Below, piece by piece: positions 9,730-23,862 of a DNA stretch of 64,000 bases. How positions within the stretch are numbered: the stretch's first letter is position 1; every line of letters begins with the position of its first letter. Made by a program: the position numbers and the translations under genes. Under the pieces are notes generated by a model, which had not been told where the DNA came from, did no database searches, and saw only the letters and a list, made by a program, of their open reading frames with translations. The stretch is from Thermoanaerobaculia bacterium (GTDB taxonomy: Bacteria > Acidobacteriota > Thermoanaerobaculia > UBA5066), in the NCBI GenBank assembly GCA_963719225.1, contig CAVRAY010000001.1:352001-416000 (forward strand), read 5' to 3'.

Positions 9730-10317
9730 GTGGAGGTGCGAGTCGCGCCCGTGGGGGACATCACCTTGCTCCTCGCCGCCATCCGCGCGGGCGACGAAGA
9801 CGCGTCGTCGCGGCTTTTCTCTCTCGTCTACGACGAGCTCAAGCGCATCGCGCGCCGGCAGCTCCGCGTTCGGCTCCGACCCACGCTCACGACGACCGCT
9901 CTCGTCCACGAGACGTACGTGAAGCTCTCGGCGCACGGGCGCTGGTCGGCTCGCGACCGTTCTCACTTCTTCGCGCTCGCCGCGCGCGCGATGCGTCAGG
10001 TCGTCGTGGATTACGCGCGTGAACGGACCCGCGCCAAGCGGGGCGGGCGTGCGGCGCGCATCACGCTCGACGCGGCGTACGTCGTCTCGGTCGACGGCCC
10101 GGCCGAAGAAATCCTCGCGGTGGATCAGGCGCTCGAGCGGCTGGGGGAAGCCGATCCGGACCTGGCGCGCATCGTGGAGTGGCGGTTCTTCGGCGGACTG
10201 TCCATCGAGGAGATCGCCGACTCGCTGGAAGTCTCCGACAGGACCGTGAAGCGCCACTGGCGGGCCGCCCGGGCCTTCCTCTATCGGGAGCTCGGGGCTG
10301 GAGGCGCCACGGGATGA
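9730..10317 (+). CDS. ECF sigma factor, TIGR02999-like (kinase-associated)
   Basis: 'LFSLVYDELKRIARRQL', 'TLTTTALVHETYVKL', 'ARAMRQVVVDYAR', 'RFFGGLSIEEIA...VSDRTVKRHW'. Confidence 0.92.
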   Translation: MEVRVAPVGDITLLLAAIRAGDEDASSRLFSLVYDELKRIARRQLRVRLRPTLTTTALVHETYVKLSAHGRWSARDRSHFFALAARAMRQVVVDYARERTRAKRGGRAARITLDAAYVVSVDGPAEEILAVDQALERLGEADPDLARIVEWRFFGGLSIEEIADSLEVSDRTVKRHWRAARAFLYRELGAGGATG

Positions 10318-13205
10318 AGGGCTCGGAACGCTTTCGCGAGGCGCGGGATCTCTTCGTCGAGCTCGTCGACCTGCCTCCCGCCGGGCAGGAGGCGCGCCTC
10401 GAAGCGCTCGCGCGCCTGGATCCCGAGCTCGCCGTCGAGGTGCGCCTTCTCTTCGAAGCCGACGCGAATGCAGAGGGATTCCTGGAAGAGCCGGCGCCGG
10501 AGCGGCTCGCCGCGCTGGCGGGCGAGGGCACCGGGAACGAGGGACTCGAAGACGAGCCTGAGACCCCCCTTGGCGAGCGCATCGGTCCCTACCGGACCTT
10601 GCGGCTCCTGGGGCGCGGTGGCATGGGCGAGGTCTTTCTGGCCGAGCGCGCGGACGGACAGTTCGAGCAGCGCGTGGCCTTGAAGCTCGTCAAGCGCGGC
10701 ATGGACTCGCAGGAAATTCTCTCCCGGTTCCGGCGTGAACGTCAGATCCTGGCGCGCCTCTCGCACCCGAACATCGCACGGCTTTTCGACGGAGGGCTCG
10801 CGGACGACGGCCGGCCGTACTTCGCTCTCGAATGCATCGACGGAGAGCCGATCACCGCGTATTGCGCCCAGCGGGACCTCCCGATCGAGGAGCGCGTGCG
10901 CCTCGCGGTCGTCTGCTGCGACGCGGTCGAGGTGGCGCACCGGAGCCTCGTCGTCCACCGCGACCTCAAGCCGTCGAACGTCCTCGTGACGACGGACGGC
11001 GATGTGAAGCTTCTCGACTTCGGGATCGCGAAGCTGCTCGAAGCGGACGACTCCGACGCCACCGTCACCCGGCGCGACTTCCGCGCTCTCACGCCGGCCT
11101 ACGCCGCGCCCGAGCTGATCCTGGGAGAGCCCGCCACGACGGCAGCGGACGTCTATTCGCTCGGCGTCGTTCTCTACGAGCTCCTGACGGGGACTCTGCC
11201 CTTCGAGCGAAAGGGCGCCTCGGCACATCGGCTTGCCGCTCACCTCGACGACGAGCTCCTCGAGCGCCCGAGCGTGCGCGCCCGGCGCGTGCTCGCCGAT
11301 CGACGCGCCGCCGCGCGGCAGGCACGCCGCCTCGCGGGTGATCTCGACAACATCCTCCTCACCGCGCTCCGCCGCGAGCCGGAAAGGCGGTATCGATCCG
11401 CCGCCGCCCTCGGCGAGGACTTGAGAAGGCATCTGGCAGGGCTGCCGGTCCGGGCGCGGGCGGACACGTTCCCATATCGCGCCGGCAAGTTTCTCAAGCG
11501 GCATCGCGCGGGGGTCGCGGCGGCCGCGTTCGTGCTTCTCGCTCTCGTGGCGGGACTCGCAGGAACGAGCTGGCAGGCGCGCCGTGCCGAGGCGAGCGCG
11601 CGCGAGGCCTCCGCTCAGGCGCTGCGCGCGGCACGAGTCAAGGAGTTTCTCATCACGCTCTTCGAGATCGCGGACCCGGAGCAGGCGGCGGGCGACCGGA
11701 TCACCGCCCGGCAGATCCTCGACCAGGGAACGCGCCGGCTGAGGACCGAGCTGGCCGCCGAGCCAGCCATTCAGGCCGACCTCCTGGAGGCCGTGGCGCG
11801 AATCGACCGTAGCCTCGGATTGCTCGAGCCGGCCGCCCTTCTGGCGGAGGAGTCCTTGCGGCTCCGGCGCGGGCGCCTCGCTGGAAGCGATCCCGCCGTG
11901 GGGAGCAGCCTGGCGACGCTGGGCGCCATTCGGATGGGCCAGGGAAAGCTCGACGAGGCCGAGCGCCATCTCAAGGAAGCGCTCACGATTCTGACGGCAC
12001 GCGAGTCGTCGTCGAGCCTCACGCTCGCCCGCGCGAGAGGCGACTACGGCGAGATCCTGTTCTGGAAGGGCAAGGTGGAGGAATCGGAGAAGATCGAGCG
12101 CCAGGTCTACGAGACGTATCGTCAGGTGCTCGGAGCCGAGCACGTCCAGACGGCGATCCACCTCCGGAACCTGTGCGTCCTCCTGGAGGCCGTCGGCCGC
12201 CTGGACGAGGCCGAACAGGCGTGCCGCGACTCGCAAGGCGTCCTGGAGAGGCATCTCGGTCCCGACCATGCGAACCTCGGCCAGAGCTATCTGAACCTGG
12301 CGGTGCTTCTCGACCACCGGGGAAAATCAGGCGAGGCGGAAACCCTCTATCGGCGCGCGCTCGGCGTCCGGAAGGCCACGCTCGGACCGAACCACCCGGC
12401 GACGGGGCAGAGCCTGCAGCTCCTCGCCCTCTTCCTCTTGAAAGAAGGGCGTATCGACGAGTCGGAGACGACGTACCGCGAGGCACTGACGCTCTTCACG
12501 AGGATCGATCCGAAACACTTCGAGATCGCCAAGTGCCGGAACGGACTCGCGCTGATCGAGTCGCGCCGCGGCCACTTCACCGCGGCGGAAAGCATCCTTC
12601 GCGAAGTCGTCGCGTCGTTCCGCGAGTCGCTCGGCGAGAAGCACCCGTTCGTCTGGCAAGGGACCGGAAACATGGCCGAACAGATCGCCCTTCAGGGACG
12701 CCTCGCGGAGGCGGAACGGCTACAGCGGCAGGTTGTCGCGCACCTCGAGGAGATCACTGGAAAAGAGAGCGGCGAAACCGCGCAGGCGCTGGGGCGCCTC
12801 GGCGACACGCTGCGGCGGCGGGGGACCGCGGCCGAGGCGGTTCTCCTTTGTCGGCGGTCGCTCGAGATCCAGAAAAAGATACTCGGTCCCGATCATCTGG
12901 ACGTGGCCCTGGCGAGCTCTCAGCTCGGCGCCGCACTTGCGGGTCTCCCCGAGGAAGCCGGATATCGCGAGGCCGACGAGCTTCTGGAACGCTCCGCCGC
13001 CGTCTATCGCAAGCTGAAGCCGGACCACCCTCGACTGCCGGACGTCCTTCTCACGCAAGGCCGGCTCGCGGCGGCCCGCGGCGACAATGAGCGTGCCCGC
13101 TCGCTGACCGCCGAGGCCGCCTCACTCCTCGAGAAGCTCTACGGAAAAGGCGACCGCCGGGTGCGGGAGGCGCGCGCCCTGCTAGCGTCCCATCCCGCCA
13201 CCTGA
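10314..13205 (+). CDS. Ser/Thr protein kinase with TM segment and TPR array
   Basis: GRGGMGEV, VALK, HRDLKPSN, DFG, YAAPE and DVYSLG motifs, a TM helix and TPR repeats. ATGA overlap with the ECF gene. Confidence 0.93.
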   Translation: MKGSERFREARDLFVELVDLPPAGQEARLEALARLDPELAVEVRLLFEADANAEGFLEEPAPERLAALAGEGTGNEGLEDEPETPLGERIGPYRTLRLLGRGGMGEVFLAERADGQFEQRVALKLVKRGMDSQEILSRFRRERQILARLSHPNIARLFDGGLADDGRPYFALECIDGEPITAYCAQRDLPIEERVRLAVVCCDAVEVAHRSLVVHRDLKPSNVLVTTDGDVKLLDFGIAKLLEADDSDATVTRRDFRALTPAYAAPELILGEPATTAADVYSLGVVLYELLTGTLPFERKGASAHRLAAHLDDELLERPSVRARRVLADRRAAARQARRLAGDLDNILLTALRREPERRYRSAAALGEDLRRHLAGLPVRARADTFPYRAGKFLKRHRAGVAAAAFVLLALVAGLAGTSWQARRAEASAREASAQALRAARVKEFLITLFEIADPEQAAGDRITARQILDQGTRRLRTELAAEPAIQADLLEAVARIDRSLGLLEPAALLAEESLRLRRGRLAGSDPAVGSSLATLGAIRMGQGKLDEAERHLKEALTILTARESSSSLTLARARGDYGEILFWKGKVEESEKIERQVYETYRQVLGAEHVQTAIHLRNLCVLLEAVGRLDEAEQACRDSQGVLERHLGPDHANLGQSYLNLAVLLDHRGKSGEAETLYRRALGVRKATLGPNHPATGQSLQLLALFLLKEGRIDESETTYREALTLFTRIDPKHFEIAKCRNGLALIESRRGHFTAAESILREVVASFRESLGEKHPFVWQGTGNMAEQIALQGRLAEAERLQRQVVAHLEEITGKESGETAQALGRLGDTLRRRGTAAEAVLLCRRSLEIQKKILGPDHLDVALASSQLGAALAGLPEEAGYREADELLERSAAVYRKLKPDHPRLPDVLLTQGRLAAARGDNERARSLTAEAASLLEKLYGKGDRRVREARALLASHPAT

Positions 13206-13223: not shown

Positions 13224-15083
13224 TTAGTTCGCGTGCGCTCGCAACGCGACGCCGGCGGCGACCACCAGGAGCAGACCGAGGAGCCCCAGCGCCCATGGCT
13301 GCAACGTTGGAACGTCCGTCGGCGCCGCACCGACCGGAATCACCGTGACGCTCGCCGACGCGGTGTCGCCCGCCCCGCCTTCGACCGAAGTCACGGCGCC
13401 GGAGACGTTGTTCTGCGTTCCCAGCGTCGTACCGGTCGCGTTCACGCCGAAGTTGCACGAGGCGCTCGCCGCGAGCGTCGCGCCCGCCAGGCTGACGGCA
13501 CCCGACCCGGCAATCGCCGTGATCGTGCCTCCACCGCAGCTCCCTGTGAGTCCGTTCGGAGTCGAGACGACGAGACCCGCCGGTAGCGTGTCGGTGAAGC
13601 CGACGCCGGTCAATGCCGTGGAAGAGTTGGGATTGTTGATCGTGAAGCTGAGCGAGGTCGACCCGTTCAGCACGACGGTCCCTCCGCCGAAAGACTTTGC
13701 GATCGTCGGCGGCGCGACAGCAGCCGCGACCGTCACGCTCGCCGAGGCCGTCCCGCCCGCACCGCCTTCGACCGAAGTCACCGCACCGGTCCCGTTGTTC
13801 TTCGTTCCCGTCGTGGTGCCGATCACGTTCACGCTGAAGGTACACGAGGCACTCGGCGCGAGCGTCGCGCCCGCCAGGCTGACGGCACCCGACCCTGCGG
13901 TCGCCGTGATCGTCCCGCCGCCGCAGCTGCCCGTGAGCCCGTTCGGGGTCGAGACGACGAGGCCCGCCGGCAACGTGTCGGTGAAACCGACGCCGGTCAA
14001 CGCCGTTGAAGCATTGGGGTTGTTGAGCGTGAAGCTGAGCGAGGTCGACCCGTTGAGCGGAATGCTCCCAGCACCGAAGGTCTTCGCGATCGTCGGCGGC
14101 GCGGTGGCGGCGCCGGTCGTGATGCGCCCGATCCGGTCGAGATTCTCTTCCGTGAACCACAGGTTGCCGTCGGGGCCGGCCGTGATGCCCTCCGGCCCGG
14201 CGGGGGCGGTGAGGCCGGCGCTGAACTCGGTGACGACTCCGGCCGGGGTGATGCGCCCGATCCGGTTGCCGCCTTCTTCCGTGAACCACAGGTTGCCGTC
14301 GGGGCCGGCAGTGATGCCGCGAAGCCCGGCGCCGGCTGTGATGCCAGCGCTGAATTCGGTGACGACTCCGGCCGGGGTAATGCGCCCGATCCGGTCGCTG
14401 CTGTTTTCCGTGAACCACAGGTTGCCATCGGGGCCGGCCGTGATGCCGTAGAGCCCCGCGTCGGCGGTGATGCCGGCGCTGAACTCGGTGACGACTCCGG
14501 CCGGGGTGATCCGCCCGATCCGGCTGACGTCGGCGCTTTCCGTGAACCACAGGTTGCCGTCGGGCCCTGCCGTTATGCCGAAAGGGGTCGAGCCGGGGCT
14601 AATGCCGGCGCTGAACTCGGTGACGACTCCGGCCGGCGTGATCCGTCCGATTCCGTCGGGATTGATTGTGAACCACAGGTTTCCATCCGGTCCGGACGTG
14701 ATGGAGCAATTTGGGTTGCCGGAGAGGCCGGCCGTGACCTCGGTGATGACGCCGAGGGGGGTGATCCGCCCGATCCGGTTGCCGCTCTCCGTGAACCACA
14801 GGTTCCCGTCGGGGCCGGCCGTGATGCCGCAAGGCGCCACGAAGCCGGCAGGGGTGAACTCGGTGACGACGCCGAGCGGAGTGATCCGCCCGATCAGGTT
14901 GCCGCCTTCTTCCGCGAACCACAGGTTGCCGTCGGGGCCGGCGGTGATTCCGAAAGGCGACGCGAACGGGCTGATGCCGGCGCTGAACTCGGTGATGACC
15001 TGGGCGTGAGCCGTACCGCTGAAAAGCCCGAGCAGGGCGAGAAACGCCGCCGTCGGCGCAGAGAGTCTGAGAAGACGCTGCAC
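13224..15083 (-). CDS. Surface protein: Vgb-like beta-propeller, two Ig-like repeats and an IPTL-CTERM-like sorting tail
   Basis: GTG start after AAGGAGG, signal peptide, 7 'GIT(A/S)GPDGNLWF'-type repeats, two near-identical 'PPTIAK.F...' domains and C-terminal 'VPTLQPWALGLLGLLL...LR'. Confidence 0.85.
   Translation of the reverse strand: MQRLLRLSAPTAAFLALLGLFSGTAHAQVITEFSAGISPFASPFGITAGPDGNLWFAEEGGNLIGRITPLGVVTEFTPAGFVAPCGITAGPDGNLWFTESGNRIGRITPLGVITEVTAGLSGNPNCSITSGPDGNLWFTINPDGIGRITPAGVVTEFSAGISPGSTPFGITAGPDGNLWFTESADVSRIGRITPAGVVTEFSAGITADAGLYGITAGPDGNLWFTENSSDRIGRITPAGVVTEFSAGITAGAGLRGITAGPDGNLWFTEEGGNRIGRITPAGVVTEFSAGLTAPAGPEGITAGPDGNLWFTEENLDRIGRITTGAATAPPTIAKTFGAGSIPLNGSTSLSFTLNNPNASTALTGVGFTDTLPAGLVVSTPNGLTGSCGGGTITATAGSGAVSLAGATLAPSASCTFSVNVIGTTTGTKNNGTGAVTSVEGGAGGTASASVTVAAAVAPPTIAKSFGGGTVVLNGSTSLSFTINNPNSSTALTGVGFTDTLPAGLVVSTPNGLTGSCGGGTITAIAGSGAVSLAGATLAASASCNFGVNATGTTLGTQNNVSGAVTSVEGGAGDTASASVTVIPVGAAPTDVPTLQPWALGLLGLLLVVAAGVALRAHAN
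13345..14100 (-). repeat. Tandem duplication of a ~125-aa coding domain
   Basis: Two near-identical copies of 'LNGSTSLSFT.NNPN.STALTGVGFTDTLPAGLVVSTPNGLTGSCGGGTITA', also visible at DNA level. Boundaries approximate. Confidence 0.85.
14120..15000 (-). repeat. Seven ~126-bp coding repeats (propeller blades)
   Basis: Recurring 'gtgaaccacaggttgccgtcggggcc' units. Boundaries approximate. Confidence 0.85.
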
Positions 15084-15233
15084 GATTGTCCTCCTTACCT
15101 CGGGGCTCGGCACTCCGGGCCTGAATAGGTAATCGACGAATTCGAGGAAAAGGGGACAACCCTTATCCGGAAAGCCGAGGTCAGTCCGCGAGCCTCCATG
15201 ACGCGCCGCGCGGCGCTGATATCCTCCGCGCGG

Positions 15234-16771: not shown

Positions 16772-16801
16772 TTGACATATCAATATTAGTTGATATATAT
16801 T
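16772..16801 (+). promoter_or_regulatory. Sigma70 promoter overlapped by an ArsR-type operator
   Basis: TTGACA at 16772-16777 and TATATT at 16796-16801. Palindrome ATATCAA-N6-TTGATAT at 16777-16796. Confidence 0.8.
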
Positions 16802-16807
16802 GCCGCC

Positions 16808-17202
16808 ATGGCAGGACCAGCCATCCCGGCTAGGAGATTCCGAGAAAGACTTGATGTGGGACGCCTTGCGCGGCTGTTCCATGCGCTTTCGGACGAGACA
16901 CGGCTGAAGATCGTCGAGCGGCTGCTTAGCGGTGAGCAGTGCGTCTGCAACCTCATGGAACCACTAGGTTTAGGGCAATCTCATCTGTCGTTTCACATGA
17001 AGACCCTGAAAGACGCCGGGCTTGTGACCGATCGCCGAGCCGGTCGTTGGATCCACTATTCACTCAAGCCGGGAACCCTCGAGGAGATTCAGGAGTTCCT
17101 CGGGACGGTCGGGAAAAGGCCGCCCAGCTGGAGGCGGCACGGTGCTGCGAGAAGGATAAGAAAGAGTCGCCGGGACAGCTTTATGGTTTCTCTATCTTCT
17201 AA
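16808..17202 (+). CDS. arsR: ArsR/SmtB repressor (apparent frameshift near 17110)
   Basis: 'LFHALSDETRLKIV...EQCVCNL...QSHLSFHMKTLKDAGLV...GRWIHYSL'. An alternative frame supplies the C-terminal 'AARCC' vicinal Cys pair. Confidence 0.85.
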
Positions 17203-17203
17203 G

Positions 17204-17221
17204 AATCAAAAAATCTTGATT
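17204..17221 (+). promoter_or_regulatory. Second ArsR-type operator upstream of arsM
   Basis: AATCAA-N6-TTGATT, with the same ATCAA-N6-TTGAT core as the operator at 16777-16796. Confidence 0.7.
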
Positions 17222-17235
17222 GAATGGAGCCTGCC

Positions 17236-18059
17236 ATGTCAGAAACGAACCTGAAGGACATCGTGAAGGAGAAATACGGCGAGGCCGCCAAGCGCGCGTC
17301 GACGGGCGGCAGCGCTTGCTGTGGAGGGGCTTCCGCGATCGCCGGGGCGAAGGATCCCATCACGTCGAATCTCTACGGCGCCAACGAGACGCTCGGCCTT
17401 CCCTCCGCGGCGGTCTCGGCTTCTCTCGGCTGCGGCAATCCGACGGCGCTCGCCGAGCTCCATGAAGGCGAAACGGTCCTCGACCTCGGCTCGGGCGGCG
17501 GCATCGACGTCCTGCTGTCGTCGCGGCGCGTCGGACCCGCGGGGAAGGTCTACGGCCTCGACATGACGGACGAGATGCTCGCGCTCGCGCGGGAGAACCA
17601 GGGGGGCGCGCGCGTCACGAACGTGGAGTTCCTGAAGGGCGAGCTCGAGAACATTCCCCTTCCCGACGGGAGCGTCGACGTCATCATCTCGAACTGCGTC
17701 ATCAACCTCTCGGCCGACAAGGACCGCGCCCTGTCCGAGGCGTTCCGCGTCCTGAGGCCGGGCGGCCGGTTCGCGGTCTCCGACGTCGTCGTACGCGGCG
17801 CGGTCCCCGTGGAGGTGCGCCGCGAGCGTCGAGCTCTGGATCGGCTGCCTCGCCGGCGCACTCGAGGAGAAGGAGTTCGACGCCAAGCTGACGAAGGCCG
17901 GATTCGACCGGCGTCGAGATCGTCCCGACGCGCGTCTACGACGTCGACGACGCGCGCGACTTCCTCGCGGCGGCCGGAATCGATGCGGACGCGCTCGCTC
18001 CCCAGGTGGACGGGAAGTTCATGAGCGCGTTCGTGAGGGCCACGAAGCCGGCTGCCTGA
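17236..18059 (+). CDS. arsM: Arsenite S-adenosylmethionine methyltransferase (two apparent +1 frameshifts, ~17824 and ~17909)
   Basis: 'SACCG', 'SLGCGNP', 'LDLGSGGGID', 'ISNCVINL'. 'LWIGCLAGAL' and 'FMSAFVRATKP*' continue in shifted frames. Confidence 0.9.
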
Positions 18060-18068
18060 GGCCGAGCC

Positions 18069-19136
18069 ATGGGAACCTTCGAGCGCTTCCTCTCGCTCTG
18101 GGTCGCCCTCTGCATGGCGGCGGGCGTCGCGCTGGGCACGCTGTTTCCGGGCGCAGTTGCCGCGCTGCGCGGGCTGGAGCTCGGCGAGGGAAGCCACGTG
18201 AACGCGGCGATCATGGTCCTGATCTGGCTCATGGTCGCGCCGATGATGGCGAGGATCGACTTTCCGGCCATTCGCAACATCGGGCGGGAGCCGCGCGGGC
18301 TCGCCGTCACGCTCTTCGTGAACTGGCTCGTGAAGCCGTTTTCGATGGCCTTCCTCGCCTGGCTCTTCTTCCGGCACGCCTTTGCCGCGTGGATCGCCCC
18401 CGCGGTGGCGGATCAGTACATCGCCGGAACGATCATTCTCGCCGCAGCGCCCTGCACGGCGATGGTCTTCGTCTGGAGCGCGCTCACGCGCGGCGACCCG
18501 GCGTACACCCTCGTCCAGGTGGCCCTGAACGACCTCGTGATGCTCGTGCTGTTCGTCCCGATCGTGCGCTTCCTCGTGCGCGGGGCGTCTTCTCTCGAAG
18601 TCCCGATGCGCGTGCTCGTCACGTCCGTCGTCGCGTTTCTCGTCGTCCCGCTCGCCGTCGGAATCGTGTTACGTGCGTGGGCCATCGCGCGGCGCGGAAA
18701 GGTCTGGCTCGAAGGCACGCTGCTGCCCCGGCTCGCGCCGGTCACGGTCGCCGCGCTCCTCCTGACGCTCGTCGCCATCTTCGCGTTCCAGGCGGACAAC
18801 GTGCTGGGGAAGCCTCTTCACGTCGTCCTCATCGCGGTTCCCATCCTGCTGCAGGTCTACTTCAACTCGGCCCTCGCCTACGGTCTCATGAAGGCGGCCG
18901 GCGTCAGGCATGCGATCGCGGCCCCGGGCGCGCTCATCGGCGCAAGCAACTTCTTCGAGCTCGCCGTGGCCACCTCGATCGCGCTTTTCGGGCCCGAGTC
19001 GGGAGCCGCTCTCGCAACCACCGTCGGTGTTCTCGTCGAGGTGCCCGTCATGCTCTCCGTCTGCGCCGCGTGCAACCGCACGCGCGCCTGGTTTCCGGCT
19101 CCCGGCATGGCCCATGCGGCCGGAGGCCCCCTGTGA
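18069..19136 (+). CDS. acr3: Arsenite efflux transporter Acr3
   Basis: 'FERFLSLWVALC', 'NWLVKPFSM', 'APCTAMVFVWS', 'GASNFFELAVA', 'GVLVEVPVML'. Confidence 0.95.
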   Translation: MGTFERFLSLWVALCMAAGVALGTLFPGAVAALRGLELGEGSHVNAAIMVLIWLMVAPMMARIDFPAIRNIGREPRGLAVTLFVNWLVKPFSMAFLAWLFFRHAFAAWIAPAVADQYIAGTIILAAAPCTAMVFVWSALTRGDPAYTLVQVALNDLVMLVLFVPIVRFLVRGASSLEVPMRVLVTSVVAFLVVPLAVGIVLRAWAIARRGKVWLEGTLLPRLAPVTVAALLLTLVAIFAFQADNVLGKPLHVVLIAVPILLQVYFNSALAYGLMKAAGVRHAIAAPGALIGASNFFELAVATSIALFGPESGAALATTVGVLVEVPVMLSVCAACNRTRAWFPAPGMAHAAGGPL

Positions 19137-19543
19137 AAGCCCGAGGACTCCTCTTCCTGTGCGTCGCGAACTCGGCTCGAAGCCAGATCGCCGAGGGACT
19201 CGCCCGCGCGCGCTTCGGGGACGCGGTGCGCGTCCAGAGCGCCGGCTCGGACGCCGCGGGCGTGAACCCGCTCGCGGTGAAGGTCCTGGCGGAGCTCGGC
19301 ATCGACATCTCCTCACAGGCCTCCAAGACCGTCGATACGATCGATCCCGCGACCGTCGACACGGTCGTCACCCTCTGCGCCGAGGAGGTCTGCCCGGTCT
19401 TCCTCTCGAAGGCGCGGCACCTCCACTGGCCTCTTCCGGACCCGACGGCCGGAGGCGGAACGGAGGAGGAGCAGCTGGAGCGTTTCCGCCGGACGCGGGA
19501 CGAGTTGAAGCTCCGAATCGACTCGTTCGCGATTCTTACTTGA
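19133..19543 (+). CDS. arsC: Arsenate reductase, LMW-PTP/thioredoxin type
   Basis: GTG start overlapping the acr3 stop; 'LFLCVANSARSQIAE', 'TLCAEEVCP', 'HWPLPDP'. Confidence 0.92.
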   Translation: MKARGLLFLCVANSARSQIAEGLARARFGDAVRVQSAGSDAAGVNPLAVKVLAELGIDISSQASKTVDTIDPATVDTVVTLCAEEVCPVFLSKARHLHWPLPDPTAGGGTEEEQLERFRRTRDELKLRIDSFAILT

Positions 19544-20622
19544 CGATCTGATAGACGAGCGCGCGAGGAGCCCGCCACCGGCAGCGTGACGAGCCACGCG
19601 AGGAGCATCTCGCGGACGGTCCGCCACTGGATCCGGCTCTCCTTCGACTCGGCCCCGATCCCGATGATCGCCCCCGAGGACACGTGCGTCGTCGAGACGG
19701 GAAGCGCCCAGAAGGAAGCGGCGCTCACGAGCGCGCGAGGTCGTGAGGTTCGCGAGGAGGCCGTCGTCGTGGCCGATGCGTGTGACCTTTCGCGCGAGCG
19801 TCTCCGTCACGCGGAAGCCCCCGAGGAAGCTGCCGAGGCTCATCGCCACGGCGACGAGCGCGTAGAACCCGAACGCGCGAGATGCCGAAACCGGCCGTCG
19901 CCGCGATGCCGAGAGCGAGGATCTTCGGCGTGTCGTTGAGCCCGCGGAAGAAGCTCGTCGCACCCGCCGAAGTCCAGTGCAGCGAGTCGAGGAGCGCCCA
20001 CGCGCACAAGCGTCTCGGGCGGGCAGTCGGATGAGGCGACGAGGTCCAGCGTGGGGAGGGGAGACGCGAACGCCACGCCGGCCGCCGCGGGAACGGGCTC
20101 CCGCCGCTCGACGCAGACGCAGAACCGGTGCGCGCGGCGAAAGACGGGGAGAACGGCGGGCGCGAGGAGCAGCACGATCGCGGCGGAGATCACGGGCGAG
20201 AGCGCGAGCGGCAGCGCAACCTTCTTCGCGACCGCCGCCCAGGCGACGCCCGGGGCGCCCGACGCGGCGAGACCGGCGCCGCAGAGGGCGCCCGGCAAGC
20301 GCATGCGTCGTCGAGACGGGAAGCCCCGTGCGGGTCGCGAAGAGAAGCCACCCGATCGCGCCGCAGGCGACCGAAAGGAGAAGAGCGTTGCCGCTTCCGG
20401 CGGATTCACGAGGAGCCCCTTGCCGCTGAAGGTCGCGACGAGTCCCTGAGAGAAGAATGCGGCCACGAGTCCTCCCGCGAGCGTCCACGCCGTGCCCCAC
20501 GCGACCGCGGTCCGGTACCTGGTCGTTCCCGAGCCGACGAGCGTTGCGATGCCCTTCGACACGTCGTTCGCGCCGTTCGCGAACGCGAGGCCGAGCGTCA
20601 GGAGAACGAGGACGACGCCCAT
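19536..20622 (-). CDS. PiT-family inorganic phosphate transporter (about 6 frame switches)
   Basis: 'FANGANDVSKGIATLVGSG', 'GLPVSTTHAL', 'GLNDTPK' and 'LPVSTTHVSSGAIIG' are spread across several frames. The ATG overlaps the upstream stop; reconstructed TAA at 19536-19538. Confidence 0.8.
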
Positions 20623-23120
20623 CAACAGCAGCTCGTCCCGTCGGCGCCCGGCGCGCAGCACGCGTAACCGGCGCGCTCTTCACCCGGCTCGAGGATCGCG
20701 AAGAAGCCCTGGTACGGGGGATGCGAGAGCTTCGCGACGGTGTCGGTGCAGATTTCGTAAGGCTCGTTGCGCGGGAACTGGTGACCCTCCTCGTCGACGA
20801 AGGCCTTGCCAGGCCCGAGGTAGACGGCGCGATGGCCCTGGAAGACGCAGCCTGAGGTCTTCTCGAACTTGAAGCCCCGTACCGTGACGGAGAAGAAGGG
20901 ATATCCCTCGACGTCCTTCCAGTAGCTCTTTTTCAGGATCTCGAGGCCGTAGAACCCGGCGCGTTCGAGGCCGGCGAGGAAGCCCTCCTGCGTGAGCGCG
21001 CCTACGAGGCACTCGCCCCACAGCCGCGGGTTCGTCTTGAGGTGCGGCGGCACGTCCTCTTCCGAGACGATGTCCGAGATCACGATGCGCCCGTGATCCT
21101 TCAGGACACGCCAGATCTCCTCGAAGACGCGCGGCTTGTCGGGCGAGAGGTTCACGACGCAGTTCGAGGTGACGAGGTCGACGGTTTTCGATTCCACGGG
21201 GATCTTCTCGAGGAACCCTTCGCGGAACTCGACGACGTCGTATCCGAGCGCCGCGGCCACGATCGGCTTGTTCTCGTGCGCGACCGCCAGCATCCGGTCC
21301 GTCATGTCGACGCCGATGGCCTTCCCCGTTCCTCCGACGAACTTCGCCGCGATGAAGACGTCGATGCCCGCCCCCGAGCCGAGGTCGACGACGGTCTCGC
21401 CTTCCCGGATTCCGGCGGTCGTCATGGGCGAGCCGCACCCGTAGAAGCGGTCGATCACGTCCTTGGGGATGTGGGAAACCGCCGCGTCGTCGTATTTCGT
21501 CGGGCAGCACAGCTCGGGCTGCGGCGTCTCGGCCGCGGCGCCGTAGAACTCGCGCATCTTCGCGCGCGGCTTGTCGACGTCGAACGAGAGGACGCAGTTG
21601 GAATGAAGCGTCAGCACCGCCTTCTCGGCGAGCGTTCCGTCGGCGGTTCCGCAGGCGATCGCGCCTTCTCCCATCGCATGGAGGACGAGCGGCGCGTCGT
21701 ATCCGGAACGCACGTTCCGCCGTCCTCTCTTCTCGCGGCCGAGGTCGGTCATGACCCTCTTCGTGAGCGCGACGGAGATCGGGTAGTAGGGATCGTCGCC
21801 GAGGAAGTCTCCGCCGGAGAAGCACCACGCGTGCTCGAGATCCCCGCCGCCCGTGAAGAAGCGGAAGGGATCGCCGTTCATCGACGGCTTCCGGGCGAGC
21901 GTGGCGGCCCGAAGCGTCCTGACGATCGGCGACGTTTCGAGGACCTCGCGAAGATCCTGCCGCGAGACGTCGCCGCAGACGAGCGCCGGCTCGTTCGCGA
22001 GGGCCGCGGTCGGGTAGACCTTGCCGTCCGCGTACACGCAGATCGAGTCCCAGCCGGCGTTTCCGAGGTCGTACTTGACGCCCGGGACGCCGTTCACGCG
22101 GCGCTTGATCGCCTCGAGGTTGTCGAGCGTGGTTCCCTCGCGTGCCGCGGCATCCGCGACGGCGAGAACTGCCTTGAGGAGAAGGACGTTCTCCGGAAAG
22201 AAGCCGTTTCCGCTCTCGAGCGCACGGCCGCGCCGGTGGCTCCACATGAGGTGCTGGCTCTTCGCGCCGACGCGCTTGACGAGGGCGGGGATCTCGACGA
22301 GCTCGGAGAGGTTCTCCTCGGTCGTGACCGTCGTCAGGGAGACGTCGAAGCCCATGTCCGCGAGGAGCTTCGCGCCGTCGAGAGCCTTCACGAACGTGCC
22401 GCCTCCGCGGATCGGGTCGTTCGTCTCCGGGCGCGCGCCGTCGAGGGAGACCTGGAACTTCACGCGGGAACGATCGAGCGATTCGAGGCCATTCTTCACG
22501 GCGCCCACGAAGACGGTCGCGTTCGTGAGGACGATCATCTCGGCCCCGTGGGTCTCGGTGGCGCGCTTCGCGAGATCGAAGAGATCCTTCCTCAGGAACG
22601 GCTCCCCGCCCGTGACGTAGAGGCGTTCCATCCCGAGCTCGGCCGCGCGGTCGACGAGCTTCGCGAGGGCGGCGGGATCGATGCCCGGCGCGCCGCCGGG
22701 CCCCGACGAGACGAGGCAGTGCGTGCAGGTGAGGTTGCAGGCGTTGTTGATCTGCAGCCACAGCTCCCGAAGTCCCGACGGCTCGATGAGAGCGGCGCGG
22801 CCGGGGTATGGCGCCCGGGCGAACGGGGCGTCGTGCAGCATGCCCGCGCGGTCGAGGGCGCGGAGGAAGCCGTGGACGTGGACCCATGCCTTCCCCGCCT
22901 CGAGCTGGTGATCCGCGGCCCAGCGCGCGACGCAGGTTCCGAACGCGAGAGGCGCGCCGGCCTCCTCCGCGGTCCGAATCGCGCTGAGCAGCTCTCCGCC
23001 GCGCGCGTCGACGGCGATCCAGTTCGGCGCCTCGGGGTCGACGGCATAGAGGACGTCGTCCTCGGTGAACGTGTGGAACGCGGGCAAGTGGAGCGGAGTC
23101 CGCTCCGCGAGAACGGTCAT
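20622..23120 (-). CDS. Radical SAM / ArsM-like methyltransferase fusion protein (832 aa)
   Basis: GGAGG RBS. CNLTCTHC and TGGEP radical SAM motifs, then ArsM motifs 'LCCP', 'FYGCGSP', 'DLGSGAGID', 'SNCVVNL', 'WGECLVGA'; ends 'YACC...TSCC'. Confidence 0.9.
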   Translation of the reverse strand: MTVLAERTPLHLPAFHTFTEDDVLYAVDPEAPNWIAVDARGGELLSAIRTAEEAGAPLAFGTCVARWAADHQLEAGKAWVHVHGFLRALDRAGMLHDAPFARAPYPGRAALIEPSGLRELWLQINNACNLTCTHCLVSSGPGGAPGIDPAALAKLVDRAAELGMERLYVTGGEPFLRKDLFDLAKRATETHGAEMIVLTNATVFVGAVKNGLESLDRSRVKFQVSLDGARPETNDPIRGGGTFVKALDGAKLLADMGFDVSLTTVTTEENLSELVEIPALVKRVGAKSQHLMWSHRRGRALESGNGFFPENVLLLKAVLAVADAAAREGTTLDNLEAIKRRVNGVPGVKYDLGNAGWDSICVYADGKVYPTAALANEPALVCGDVSRQDLREVLETSPIVRTLRAATLARKPSMNGDPFRFFTGGGDLEHAWCFSGGDFLGDDPYYPISVALTKRVMTDLGREKRGRRNVRSGYDAPLVLHAMGEGAIACGTADGTLAEKAVLTLHSNCVLSFDVDKPRAKMREFYGAAAETPQPELCCPTKYDDAAVSHIPKDVIDRFYGCGSPMTTAGIREGETVVDLGSGAGIDVFIAAKFVGGTGKAIGVDMTDRMLAVAHENKPIVAAALGYDVVEFREGFLEKIPVESKTVDLVTSNCVVNLSPDKPRVFEEIWRVLKDHGRIVISDIVSEEDVPPHLKTNPRLWGECLVGALTQEGFLAGLERAGFYGLEILKKSYWKDVEGYPFFSVTVRGFKFEKTSGCVFQGHRAVYLGPGKAFVDEEGHQFPRNEPYEICTDTVAKLSHPPYQGFFAILEPGEERAGYACCAPGADGTSCC

Positions 23121-23169
23121 CGCCAACCTCCTGGAACTTCGCGGGGGTTTCTCGTGCGGGAGAGGGGCT

Positions 23170-23862
23170 TCAGGCGGCGGCCGGGGCGGGAGGGGCGCGC
23201 GCGGGCGCGACCGGGCGGAACCCGTGGGTGAACGCCGGACGGACGCGCGCGGGAGGGGCGGGGACGGGACGAAGCGAAACGAGGAGCGTCGCGAGCGCGG
23301 GATCCAGGTCCGGCCCCGACGCGAGCACCGCGAGGTCGGACGGGCGATCCACGTCGAGGAGCGGGTCCAGCAGGGCCGCGCCGGGCGCGTTGCGGAGGAG
23401 AGCCCAAAAGACGCCCGCCGTCCGCCACGGCACTTCTTGGAAGAGTCCCGAAAGGTCGGTTGCCGCGCGCGACCCGATCAGCCAGACGCCGCCGTCCGGG
23501 GACGGGCCGAGCACGATCTCCCGCGTTTCGAGCGCGAGGAAGGCGGCGGCCAGCTGCGCTTCGCAAAGGCCGGGGACGTCTCCCGGCACCGCGACGATCT
23601 CCGAGTAGCCGCGCGCGCGCGCGTCCTGGAAGGCGTTCTTCAGGCGTTCGCCGAATCCGCGGCCGCGCTGCGGCAGGACGCTCGCCCGTTCGTGCGAGAG
23701 GCCTTCACCCGCGACGACCAGGTCGACTCCGAGAGTCCGCGTCACGTCGGACACGCGCCGCATCGAGAACGCGAAGAGCCGGCCGCCGCCCGGCATTCTC
23801 TTCATCGCCCCTTCGCGGAGAGGGGACCTCGAAAACAGCAGGACGCACCGGGATGGGCTCAC
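23170..23862 (-). CDS. DUF2064/TIGR04282-like glycosyltransferase
   Basis: 'QRGRGFGERLKNAF', 'VPGDVP', 'VLGPSPDGGVWLIG', 'VPW', 'DVDRPSDL'. Confidence 0.85.
   Translation of the reverse strand: MSPSRCVLLFSRSPLREGAMKRMPGGGRLFAFSMRRVSDVTRTLGVDLVVAGEGLSHERASVLPQRGRGFGERLKNAFQDARARGYSEIVAVPGDVPGLCEAQLAAAFLALETREIVLGPSPDGGVWLIGSRAATDLSGLFQEVPWRTAGVFWALLRNAPGAALLDPLLDVDRPSDLAVLASGPDLDPALATLLVSLRPVPAPPARVRPAFTHGFRPVAPARAPPAPAAA

Follow-up and report, generated by a model that had tools for sequence, protein, structure and literature searches.

The window analysed here, a 64,000-nucleotide stretch of a Thermoanaerobaculia contig, encodes on its minus strand (20622..23120) an 832-residue protein in which a radical S-adenosylmethionine (SAM) module is joined to a complete ArsM-type arsenic methyltransferase. 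The module has a SPASM-derived body from which the auxiliary-cluster ligands are missing, and it descends separately from the radical SAM enzyme ArsS. The gene lies in an ArsS-type cassette, is not found together with ArsS among the genomes sampled from its class, and occupies a chromosomal locus that ArsS holds in congeners. The fusion is real and conserved and, by analogy, would work like ArsM plus ArsS while not being an ArsS. We judge it somewhat more probable than an even chance that this one chain stands in for both enzymes, carrying out double methylation and then 5′-deoxyadenosylation to the arsenosugar precursor DDMAA, or 5′-deoxy-5′-dimethylarsinoyl-adenosine, and it is likely to represent an unstudied second route to carbon-arsenic sugars. 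The context that indicates this function is the ArsS-type cassette, the exclusion of ArsS and an upstream gene with an RAPP tail, all of which are missing from the preliminary description of this DNA.

Architecture and descent of the fusion

The gene and its parts are as follows; RRE denotes the recognition element of enzymes that mature peptides made on ribosomes and modified after translation (RiPPs).

20622..23120, minus strand: fusion gene, 832 residues, RRE-like domain, radical SAM, Cys-depleted SPASM-like region, Cys-His tail and three-domain ArsM (open reading frame, profile, model)
22821..23120, minus strand: RRE/PqqD-like domain, residues 1-100 (fold, Foldseek, Pfam on homologues)
22221..22772, minus strand: radical SAM core, residues 117-300, with CxxxCxxC at 22716-22739 (Pfam)
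21777..22082, minus strand: SPASM-like region, residues 347-448, with other residues at the eight cluster-ligand columns and a conserved GGGD-x-E-H, 21831-21851 (alignment; SPASM E 0.0027, below cut-off)
21585..21665, minus strand: Cys/His tail that closes the radical module, with C490, H506 and C509, a putative site of arsenic binding (conservation)
20685..21563, minus strand: ArsM methyltransferase and third domain, with C538/C539, C562, C654 and C704 (profile, alignment, fold)
20625..20666, minus strand: C-terminal CC..CC tail, also on stand-alone long ArsM (translation)
23127..23132, minus strand: Shine-Dalgarno site of the fusion (sequence)

The open reading frame is intact, with an ATG start, no internal stop and AGGAGG seven bases 5′ of the ATG. 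Pfam places the radical SAM domain at residues 124-277 (C128xxxC132xxC135), a weak, sub-cut-off SPASM match at 355-404 and the methyltransferase at 572-710, and alignment to CrArsM and CmArsM revealed that all four ArsM catalytic positions are kept. The ten best Foldseek matches of the whole AlphaFold model (predicted local distance difference test, pLDDT, 78; 44 sequences) are ArsM structures, followed by the RRE-SPASM enzymes CteB and TigE, RiPP maturases that it matches with template-modelling (TM) scores of 0.69-0.72 by target. Folded alone, residues 1-100 gave three strands and three helices (pLDDT 95.8), for which the RREs TbiB1 and PqqD were the best matches (best E 0.0025, TM 0.61-0.62 by query, E staying above 0.001 throughout); a Pfam PqqD match at E≤0.1 was obtained for 22 of 57 homologous N-termini and not for the query itself, and the RRE residues are conserved in the family. 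The segments quoted in the preliminary description (NAGWDSICVYADGKVYPT, DPFRFFTGGGD, IACG, HSNC and the CC..CC tail) are all present in the translation. Its RRE-like N-terminus is borne out by the fold and the matches to TbiB1/PqqD, its full ArsM domain with Cys motifs by the catalytic positions and fold, and its Cys-depleted SPASM-like region, with auxiliary ligands lost, by an alignment in which none of eight ligand columns holds a cysteine.

In an alignment with relatives whose SPASM region is intact, among them P0155 (35% identity, 787 columns), these eight columns read G353, G356, T371, M414, D417, T423, D427 and Y446. Other cysteines stay in the region (C361, C382 and C433), which is thus Cys-depleted and not Cys-free. 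The eight columns are non-Cys in 120/120 best close relatives and in 75/75 full-length GTDB proteins, shorter ones having been dropped from this alignment. We take columns 353/356/371/427 to be the first auxiliary cluster and 414/417/423/446 the second, following the anSME ligand order. The second-cluster cysteines are complete in four relatives (P0130, P0134, P0137 and P0166), which have no more than one from the first set; among 27 depleted metagenome proteins, 9 retain three or more of the second set (the 80 loci gave 29 full-length proteins, two of them intact), and distant relatives keep four or all eight SPASM cysteines. Given the presumed column assignment, ligand loss would have been stepwise. 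D427 stands in for a ligand throughout the depleted group, and E429 and H430 are invariant in both the close and the GTDB sets. The CxxxCxxC, GGEP and the replacement residues are likewise invariant, despite an overall identity of 72-91% and a spread over two phyla.

The radical module ends in C490..H506-x-x-C509, at the place where intact relatives have H-C-x-C. C490, C509 and all ArsM cysteines occur in 120/120 close and 75/75 GTDB proteins and H506 in 119/120 and 75/75; the distant P0210, P0229 and P0244 lack the tail cysteines and also some ArsM cysteines. Channelling of methyl-arsenic by vicinal cysteines, a possibility raised in the preliminary description, is conjectural. Stand-alone long ArsM proteins (L203, L211, L213) bear the CC..CC tail too, so it is not particular to the fusion, and C490/H506/C509 is the better candidate arsenic site.

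Among the 25 best of 79 NCBIfam models, ArsM models score best on the fusion, all under cut-off: NF008823 gives 232.6 bits over residues 537-733 (cut-off 263), a threshold that long ArsMs next to arsS miss as well (204 bits). The ArsS model TIGR04167 reaches 61.8 bits over residues 115-260 only (cut-off 300), and the HC[FY]GCTAG..SSC motif at the C-terminus of the fetched ArsS proteins is not in the fusion, which nevertheless, like ArsS, carries a C-terminal Cys motif after its radical domain. Both systems pair a CxxxCxxC radical SAM enzyme with ArsM, ArsS in two chains and the fusion in one, to which an RRE and a SPASM-derived body are added. ArsL (NF040542) with BgArsM, which act in arsinothricin biosynthesis, similarly combine radical SAM and ArsM on arsenic; unlike ArsL, the fusion has no RCCLKC tail, does not have NF040542 among its 25 best models and has arsenosugar-type neighbours. 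On these cut-offs, an assignment of the fusion to ArsS, to ArsL or to one of the named SPASM families was rejected. The best sequence and fold matches are CmArsM, CrArsM and human AS3MT (PDB 4FR0, 6CX6, 5EVJ, 8XT7), with the third domain kept, and unlike them the ArsM of the fusion sits behind a 515-residue radical module. With the RRE-radical SAM-SPASM maturases (CteB 5WGG/5WHY, TigE 8VPO, PqqE, anSME) the fusion has domain order and fold in common over residues 1-450, whereas these carry seven or eight auxiliary cysteines and no precursor was found near the fusion.

When 7989 candidates were scored, 897 clusters matched the fusion at E≤0.001, and the top 120 share 72-91% identity with it over 89-100% of the length. 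The fusion was present in 197 of 215 GTDB stretches, of which 80, from Acidobacteriota and Gemmatimonadota, were kept. A misassembly or chimera was rejected on this clustering, this spread and the absence of insertions or deletions in the reading frame among the related-contig rows shown. The preliminary description had staked its reading on a protein outside characterized families and a fusion recurring in other genomes, and the cut-offs and counts above agree with it on both. Expression data speak neither for nor against activity of the gene: no RNA sample was listed as holding it, and the best share in a DNA sample was 0.20. No whole fusion was found on 72,556 plasmids. Nor was a published description of a radical SAM-ArsM fusion found in a partial coverage of the literature, where mention in a phylogenomic supplement is possible; the available portions of PMC12159101, PMC12608789 and PMC13188914 do not describe it.

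With residues 1-515 as query, 131 proteins were found at E≤1e-30 among 1.84 billion representatives, and 55 long proteins among the 150 matches listed were scanned for domains. These comprised fusions of ~830 residues, forms of ~1000 residues with DUF5714, intact-SPASM ArsM fusions, permuted ArsM-first fusions, TusA fusions and a DUF2064 fusion. The repeated pairing with ArsM and DUF2064, in varying order, ties the radical module to arsenic. A quick tree (91 rows, none of them ArsL; SH-like approximate likelihood ratio test, SH-aLRT, with no bootstrap; five rows without a core motif match left out) placed 42 Cys-depleted proteins in one group (SH-aLRT 85) beside the intact-SPASM proteins and ArsS in a separate long-branched group (SH-aLRT 100). 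The radical module of the fusion thus descends separately from ArsS.

Several relatives differ in composition or neighbourhood. The DUF5714 form (~1000-1080 residues; class genomes L113-L122, P0136, P0157, P0160 and others) carries DUF5714 at its C-terminus, mostly has no cassette neighbours and may differ in function from the ~830-residue fusion. P0153, P0156 and L144 are intact RRE-radical SAM-SPASM relatives joined to TusA and not to ArsM, a hint of sulfur transfer. The permuted fusions are P0177, P0178 and P0191, and the DUF2064-radical SAM/SPASM fusion is P0270. The gene that comes after intact-SPASM ArsM fusions is a radical SAM gene of the B12-binding type and not one of the cassette (L133:5289-6770, L134:9450-10478), and a CobW-like GTPase, not PiT, follows the two most divergent ~830-residue fusions of the class (L123:11213-12328, L124:4866-5987).

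Genomic context and exchange with ArsS

The neighbours of the fusion in the window are the following.

19536..20622, minus strand: PiT/PHO4-family transporter, its ATG overlapping the fusion stop; several frameshifts, likely sequence errors (Pfam, contig comparison)
16790..19543, plus strand: convergent arsR-arsM(short)-acr3-arsC operon; frameshifts in arsR and arsM here (profiles, contig comparison)
23170..23862, minus strand: divergent DUF2064 ending in RAPP, TIGR04282-like (90 bits against a cut-off of 134), candidate arrest-peptide leader (profile, tail motif)
23188..23199, minus strand: RAPP codons, 67 nt before the fusion ATG, containing CCTCC, complement of the fusion Shine-Dalgarno (sequence)

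Neighbouring genes were called by a codon-score script, clustered by BLAST and named from one member per cluster by hidden Markov model, over 81 loci (80 GTDB loci and the window; many cut short; L025, L031, L038, L041, L066 and L079, from unpublished genomes, included). Near the fusion were PiT (38 loci), DUF2064 (36), VTT (21), FAD oxidoreductase (16), GT2 (11), Pst (10) and DUF547 (7). At least one of DUF2064, VTT, FAD oxidoreductase, GT2 and DUF547 was found in 56/81 loci and a phosphate-type transporter in 47/81, with DUF2064 directly upstream in 30 and PiT directly downstream in 34. These accessory genes are common to ArsS clusters: an annotated Acinetobacter plasmid cassette holds arsS, TVP38/FAD oxidoreductase, DUF547, TIGR04283, TIGR04282, long ArsM and PiT, and a like set accompanies arsS at L125 and L213. 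Around the fusion, L080 has PiT, FAD oxidoreductase, VTT, GT2 and DUF2064, the metagenome locus L159 has the full set, and a stand-alone intact-SPASM relative (L135) precedes VTT, GT2 and DUF2064. In the window the fusion is flanked by DUF2064 and PiT only, facing the arsR-arsM-acr3-arsC operon; other parts of the same genome hold DUF547, a GT2 match and VTT with FAD oxidoreductase. A TrsS-like radical SAM gene recurs by fusion and arsS cassettes (L047, L050, L032, L125; G000:C1:328659-329861).

Among 251 genomes of the class, each at least 85% complete, ArsS was found in 65 (61 over cut-off and four at E<1e-40 in which the copy is split or partial) and the fusion (~830 residues, ≥44% identity) in 29. 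None carried both, where 7.5 would be expected, or 7.1 when calculated within families (P 5e-5 if kin are treated as independent), and the overlap stayed at 0/27 without G174, G134, G178, G004 and G103. These five are among the unpublished genomes counted, the others being G275, G281, G288, G291, G316, G328, G347 and G358. The source genome (97% complete, two contigs) has no ArsS or ArsL over cut-off; its best ArsL-model match, 42 bits, is not at the fusion.

A third radical SAM family, of ~290 residues, occurs in 68/251 genomes, together with ArsS in three (17.6 expected) and with the fusion in three (7.9 expected). Fusion and ArsS have a chromosomal slot in common among congeners, beside an HIBADH gene: it holds the fusion in G000, G087 and G143, TIGR04169 with ArsS in G014, G047, G135, G211 and G175, and, where ArsS and fusion are both missing, the third enzyme in G009, G019, G111 and G215, with a metallophosphoesterase, an ATP-binding cassette (ABC) transporter and DUF2064 as companions. 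Exactly one of the three enzymes is present in 14/14 congeners (shuffled mean 6.3), in 55/61 genomes of family f5 (shuffled mean 28.1; 0/20000 shuffles), in 18/23 of f1 and 21/35 of f2; f8, with 20/39 and a shuffled mean of 18.2, shows no excess. Because the third group was defined after four congeners had been seen, the f5 result is the cleaner test. The third enzyme, a candidate second ArsS stand-in, has a C-terminal HxACxTC..GxSC tail (e.g., L224:9063-9947, minus strand; also L222, L223, L225, L227, L203, L206, L211 and L049), and its gene is usually followed by the metallophosphoesterase gene and often accompanied by genes for long ArsM, the ABC transporter and a RAPP-tailed DUF2064.

The gene upstream of the fusion resembles, in its tail and position, the RAPP/RGPP arrest peptides ApdA, ApdP and CruR, which end in R[AG]PP just upstream of a gene; many of the arrest peptides described also have a secretion signal or a membrane segment. 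This C-terminus is found in 30/30 DUF2064 proteins encoded directly before the fusion and in 0/6 elsewhere (background 3/882), 51-86 nt from the next start, and the KTRL motif is found in 0/30 tailed and 6/6 untailed proteins. The first Pro codon of the tail is CCT in 19/30, against 16% of other Pro-Pro pairs, among loci that are related; this codon spells CCTCC, the complement of GGAGG. The predicted unpaired probability of the Shine-Dalgarno site was 0.22 for the free leader and 0.35 with the stall site masked (up in 14/29, down in 1/29; no shuffled control). The leader region of the window itself folds no more stably than shuffles (z +1.86), with its Shine-Dalgarno about half open, so the case for masking rests on the relatives and the codon bias. 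RAPP and RGPP are reported to be arrest motifs, with an enrichment at the C-termini of products encoded upstream of genes of many kinds (PMC12992588, as far as available). The source data of that study contain at least 44 DUF2064 hits, with TonB/SusC receptors downstream in 17 of the first 19; among the rows listed, all 7 with an arsenosugar peroxidase-like gene downstream have a DUF2064-RAPP leader, and DUF2064 is not named in the main text as available. This peroxidase-like gene, TIGR04169, directly precedes arsS in most class loci fetched, and the same tail ends DUF2064 at third-enzyme loci (L222, L224, L225, L227), so that the operons of all three enzymes have one type of leader in common. 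A putative ribosome stall at the RAPP leader likely controls the fusion. A second, more canonical-looking DUF2064 lies at G000:C1:2512845-2513411.

Proposed function and alternatives

In the mechanism that we favour, arsenate would enter through the coupled PiT or Pst transporter and be reduced by the neighbouring ArsC, and the ArsM domain would spend SAM twice to convert arsenite to dimethylarsenite. The product would be handed to the tail that closes the radical module (C490/H506/C509), a step modelled on ArsL, in which arsenic is bound by C-terminal cysteines that hold no cluster (bioRxiv 10.1101/2024.02.01.577332). A deoxyadenosyl radical would then add to arsenic and the electron would pass back to the main cluster. 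Such a return is reported for the arsenic radical of ArsS (PMC13598754; bioRxiv 10.64898/2026.04.29.721666, both in the parts available), which converts dimethylarsenite to DDMAA in a redox-neutral reaction with no external reductant (PMC13598754). It would make auxiliary clusters dispensable and so explain their stepwise loss. GT2 and other cassette proteins would complete the sugar or lipid, and a stall at the upstream RAPP would expose the ribosome-binding site of the fusion. The available text of PMC8552651 reports that ArsM requires four cysteines and that SsArsS works with SsArsM.

A number of observations weigh against this assignment. No characterised member of the fusion family was found, identity to ArsS is just 27% over 175 residues of shared core, the conserved RRE has no counterpart in ArsS and is unexplained, and the "arsenosugar" names of the accessory genes are NCBIfam labels. 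The model has pLDDT<50 at the cluster loop and the 508-531 linker, and placement of the tail at the active site is predicted weakly. Exclusion is incomplete: the third enzyme accompanies the fusion in 3/29 fusion genomes, its cassette lies directly upstream of the fusion at L049, and two of 79 fusion genomes reached through loci, a set overlapping the class sample in several members, also hold ArsS over cut-off (G253, G304). The DUF5714 form shows no exclusion with ArsS (2/11, 2.8 expected) and stands beside the fusion in 2 genomes. Within the genus, ArsS against the fusion alone is weak (P 0.046), and 181 Gemmatimonad genomes were uninformative (fusion 7, ArsS 11, both 0, ~0.4 expected). The genomes are related and mostly draft metagenome assemblies, so that P values overstate. 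Among the congeners, G115 has ArsS outside the slot and the G095 contig stops short of it, and the slot, adjoining an ars operon, may draw in arsenic genes of any kind.

What exclusion and locus swap show is that the roles are interchangeable, not that the products are the same, and the radical half could, in the same role, make a different organoarsenical that the accessory genes process, either an aminocarboxypropyl compound as ArsL does or one formed by attack on an As-methyl group. The SPASM-lineage scaffold with its new conserved D427/E429/H430 patch at one former cluster site, the relatives fused to TusA or non-ArsM methyltransferases and the ability of ArsL, a CxxxCxxC enzyme, to cut the other SAM bond (bioRxiv 10.1101/2024.02.01.577332) all suit such a chemistry. 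The accessory set matches arsS clusters, however, and neither an ArsL-type tail nor, among the 25 best models, an ArsL match was found in the fusion, which leaves this alternative unlikely while still a serious one. An arsinothricin reading from NF040538 was rejected: the fusion ArsM scores 201 bits, but a long ArsM next to arsS scores higher, 330 bits. No arsL neighbour was found in the plasmid long-ArsM region read. That the radical half performs a parallel or later step, such as arsenosugar or arsenolipid tailoring, with exclusion reflecting alternative whole pathways or the turnover of arsenic islands, is improbable. The co-occurrences just listed, one of them in a single operon, and the position of the slot beside arsR-arsM-acr3-arsC speak for it; yet the source genome and 29/29 fusion genomes of the class lack ArsS, the usual source of the arsenosugar precursor, and exactly-one patterns of 14/14 and 55/61 are hard to reach by random turnover.

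The conserved RRE fold and residues and the whole-model matches to CteB and TigE would suit an enzyme that binds a leader or partner protein through its RRE and adds methylated arsenic or a cross-link to it. No small reading frame (15-90 residues, Shine-Dalgarno-like site, within 5 kb; 362 candidates, 69 loci) was conserved across lineages near the fusion, precursors encoded elsewhere not having been searched for; the neighbours are transport, redox and glycosyl-transfer genes, and the SPASM ligands are lost. We therefore consider peptide modification distinctly improbable, in line with the preliminary description, which had thought a RiPP role unlikely. Scarcely credible is a decaying radical half on a protein that is merely an arsenite methyltransferase: the eight cluster ligands are gone, but CxxxCxxC, GGEP and the replacement residues would hardly stay invariant in two phyla at such divergence.

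The one-chain methyltransferase-radical enzyme lends itself to tests of arsenic channelling. Since forms occur in nature that have two auxiliary ligand sets, one or none, the purpose of SPASM clusters can be tested directly on them, and with the RAPP-tailed DUF2064 it can be tested whether arsenic metabolism is under translational control. ArsS and ArsL are the radical SAM enzymes named as makers of carbon-arsenic bonds in the available parts of the literature cited. One of the three enzymes is present in 156/251 class genomes, against arsS in 65/251, and arsS-based surveys could thus undercount organoarsenic makers more than twofold in the class. A wider proposal, which we advance tentatively and hold to be rather doubtful, is that radical carbon-arsenic chemistry was invented at least three times in one pathway, in ArsS, in an ex-maturase-ArsM fusion after successive loss of two auxiliary clusters and in the ~290-residue enzyme, these being swapped at one locus, with a catalytically retired DUF2064-RAPP serving as cytosolic translational sensor of the pathway. 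If so, most Thermoanaerobaculia would make arsenosugar-type compounds, far beyond the count given by the arsS marker.

Other genes of the window

At 19735, 19877/8, 19995, 20291, 20395 and 17906 this assembly has extra bases that related contigs do not show, and the frameshifts in PiT, arsM and arsR (16790-20622) are likely assembly errors of insertion or deletion; the break in arsR is not accounted for by these contigs. A long reading frame on the minus strand (13224-15159) has numerous ITEF..G..GITAGPDGNLWF repeats, then a beta-rich domain that occurs twice and, at the C-terminus, a sorting-like tail; its product is likely a secreted beta-propeller protein. On the plus strand (9730-13205), a gene for an extracytoplasmic function (ECF)-type sigma factor is followed by one for a Ser/Thr kinase with tetratricopeptide (TPR)-like repeats, as read from the translation.

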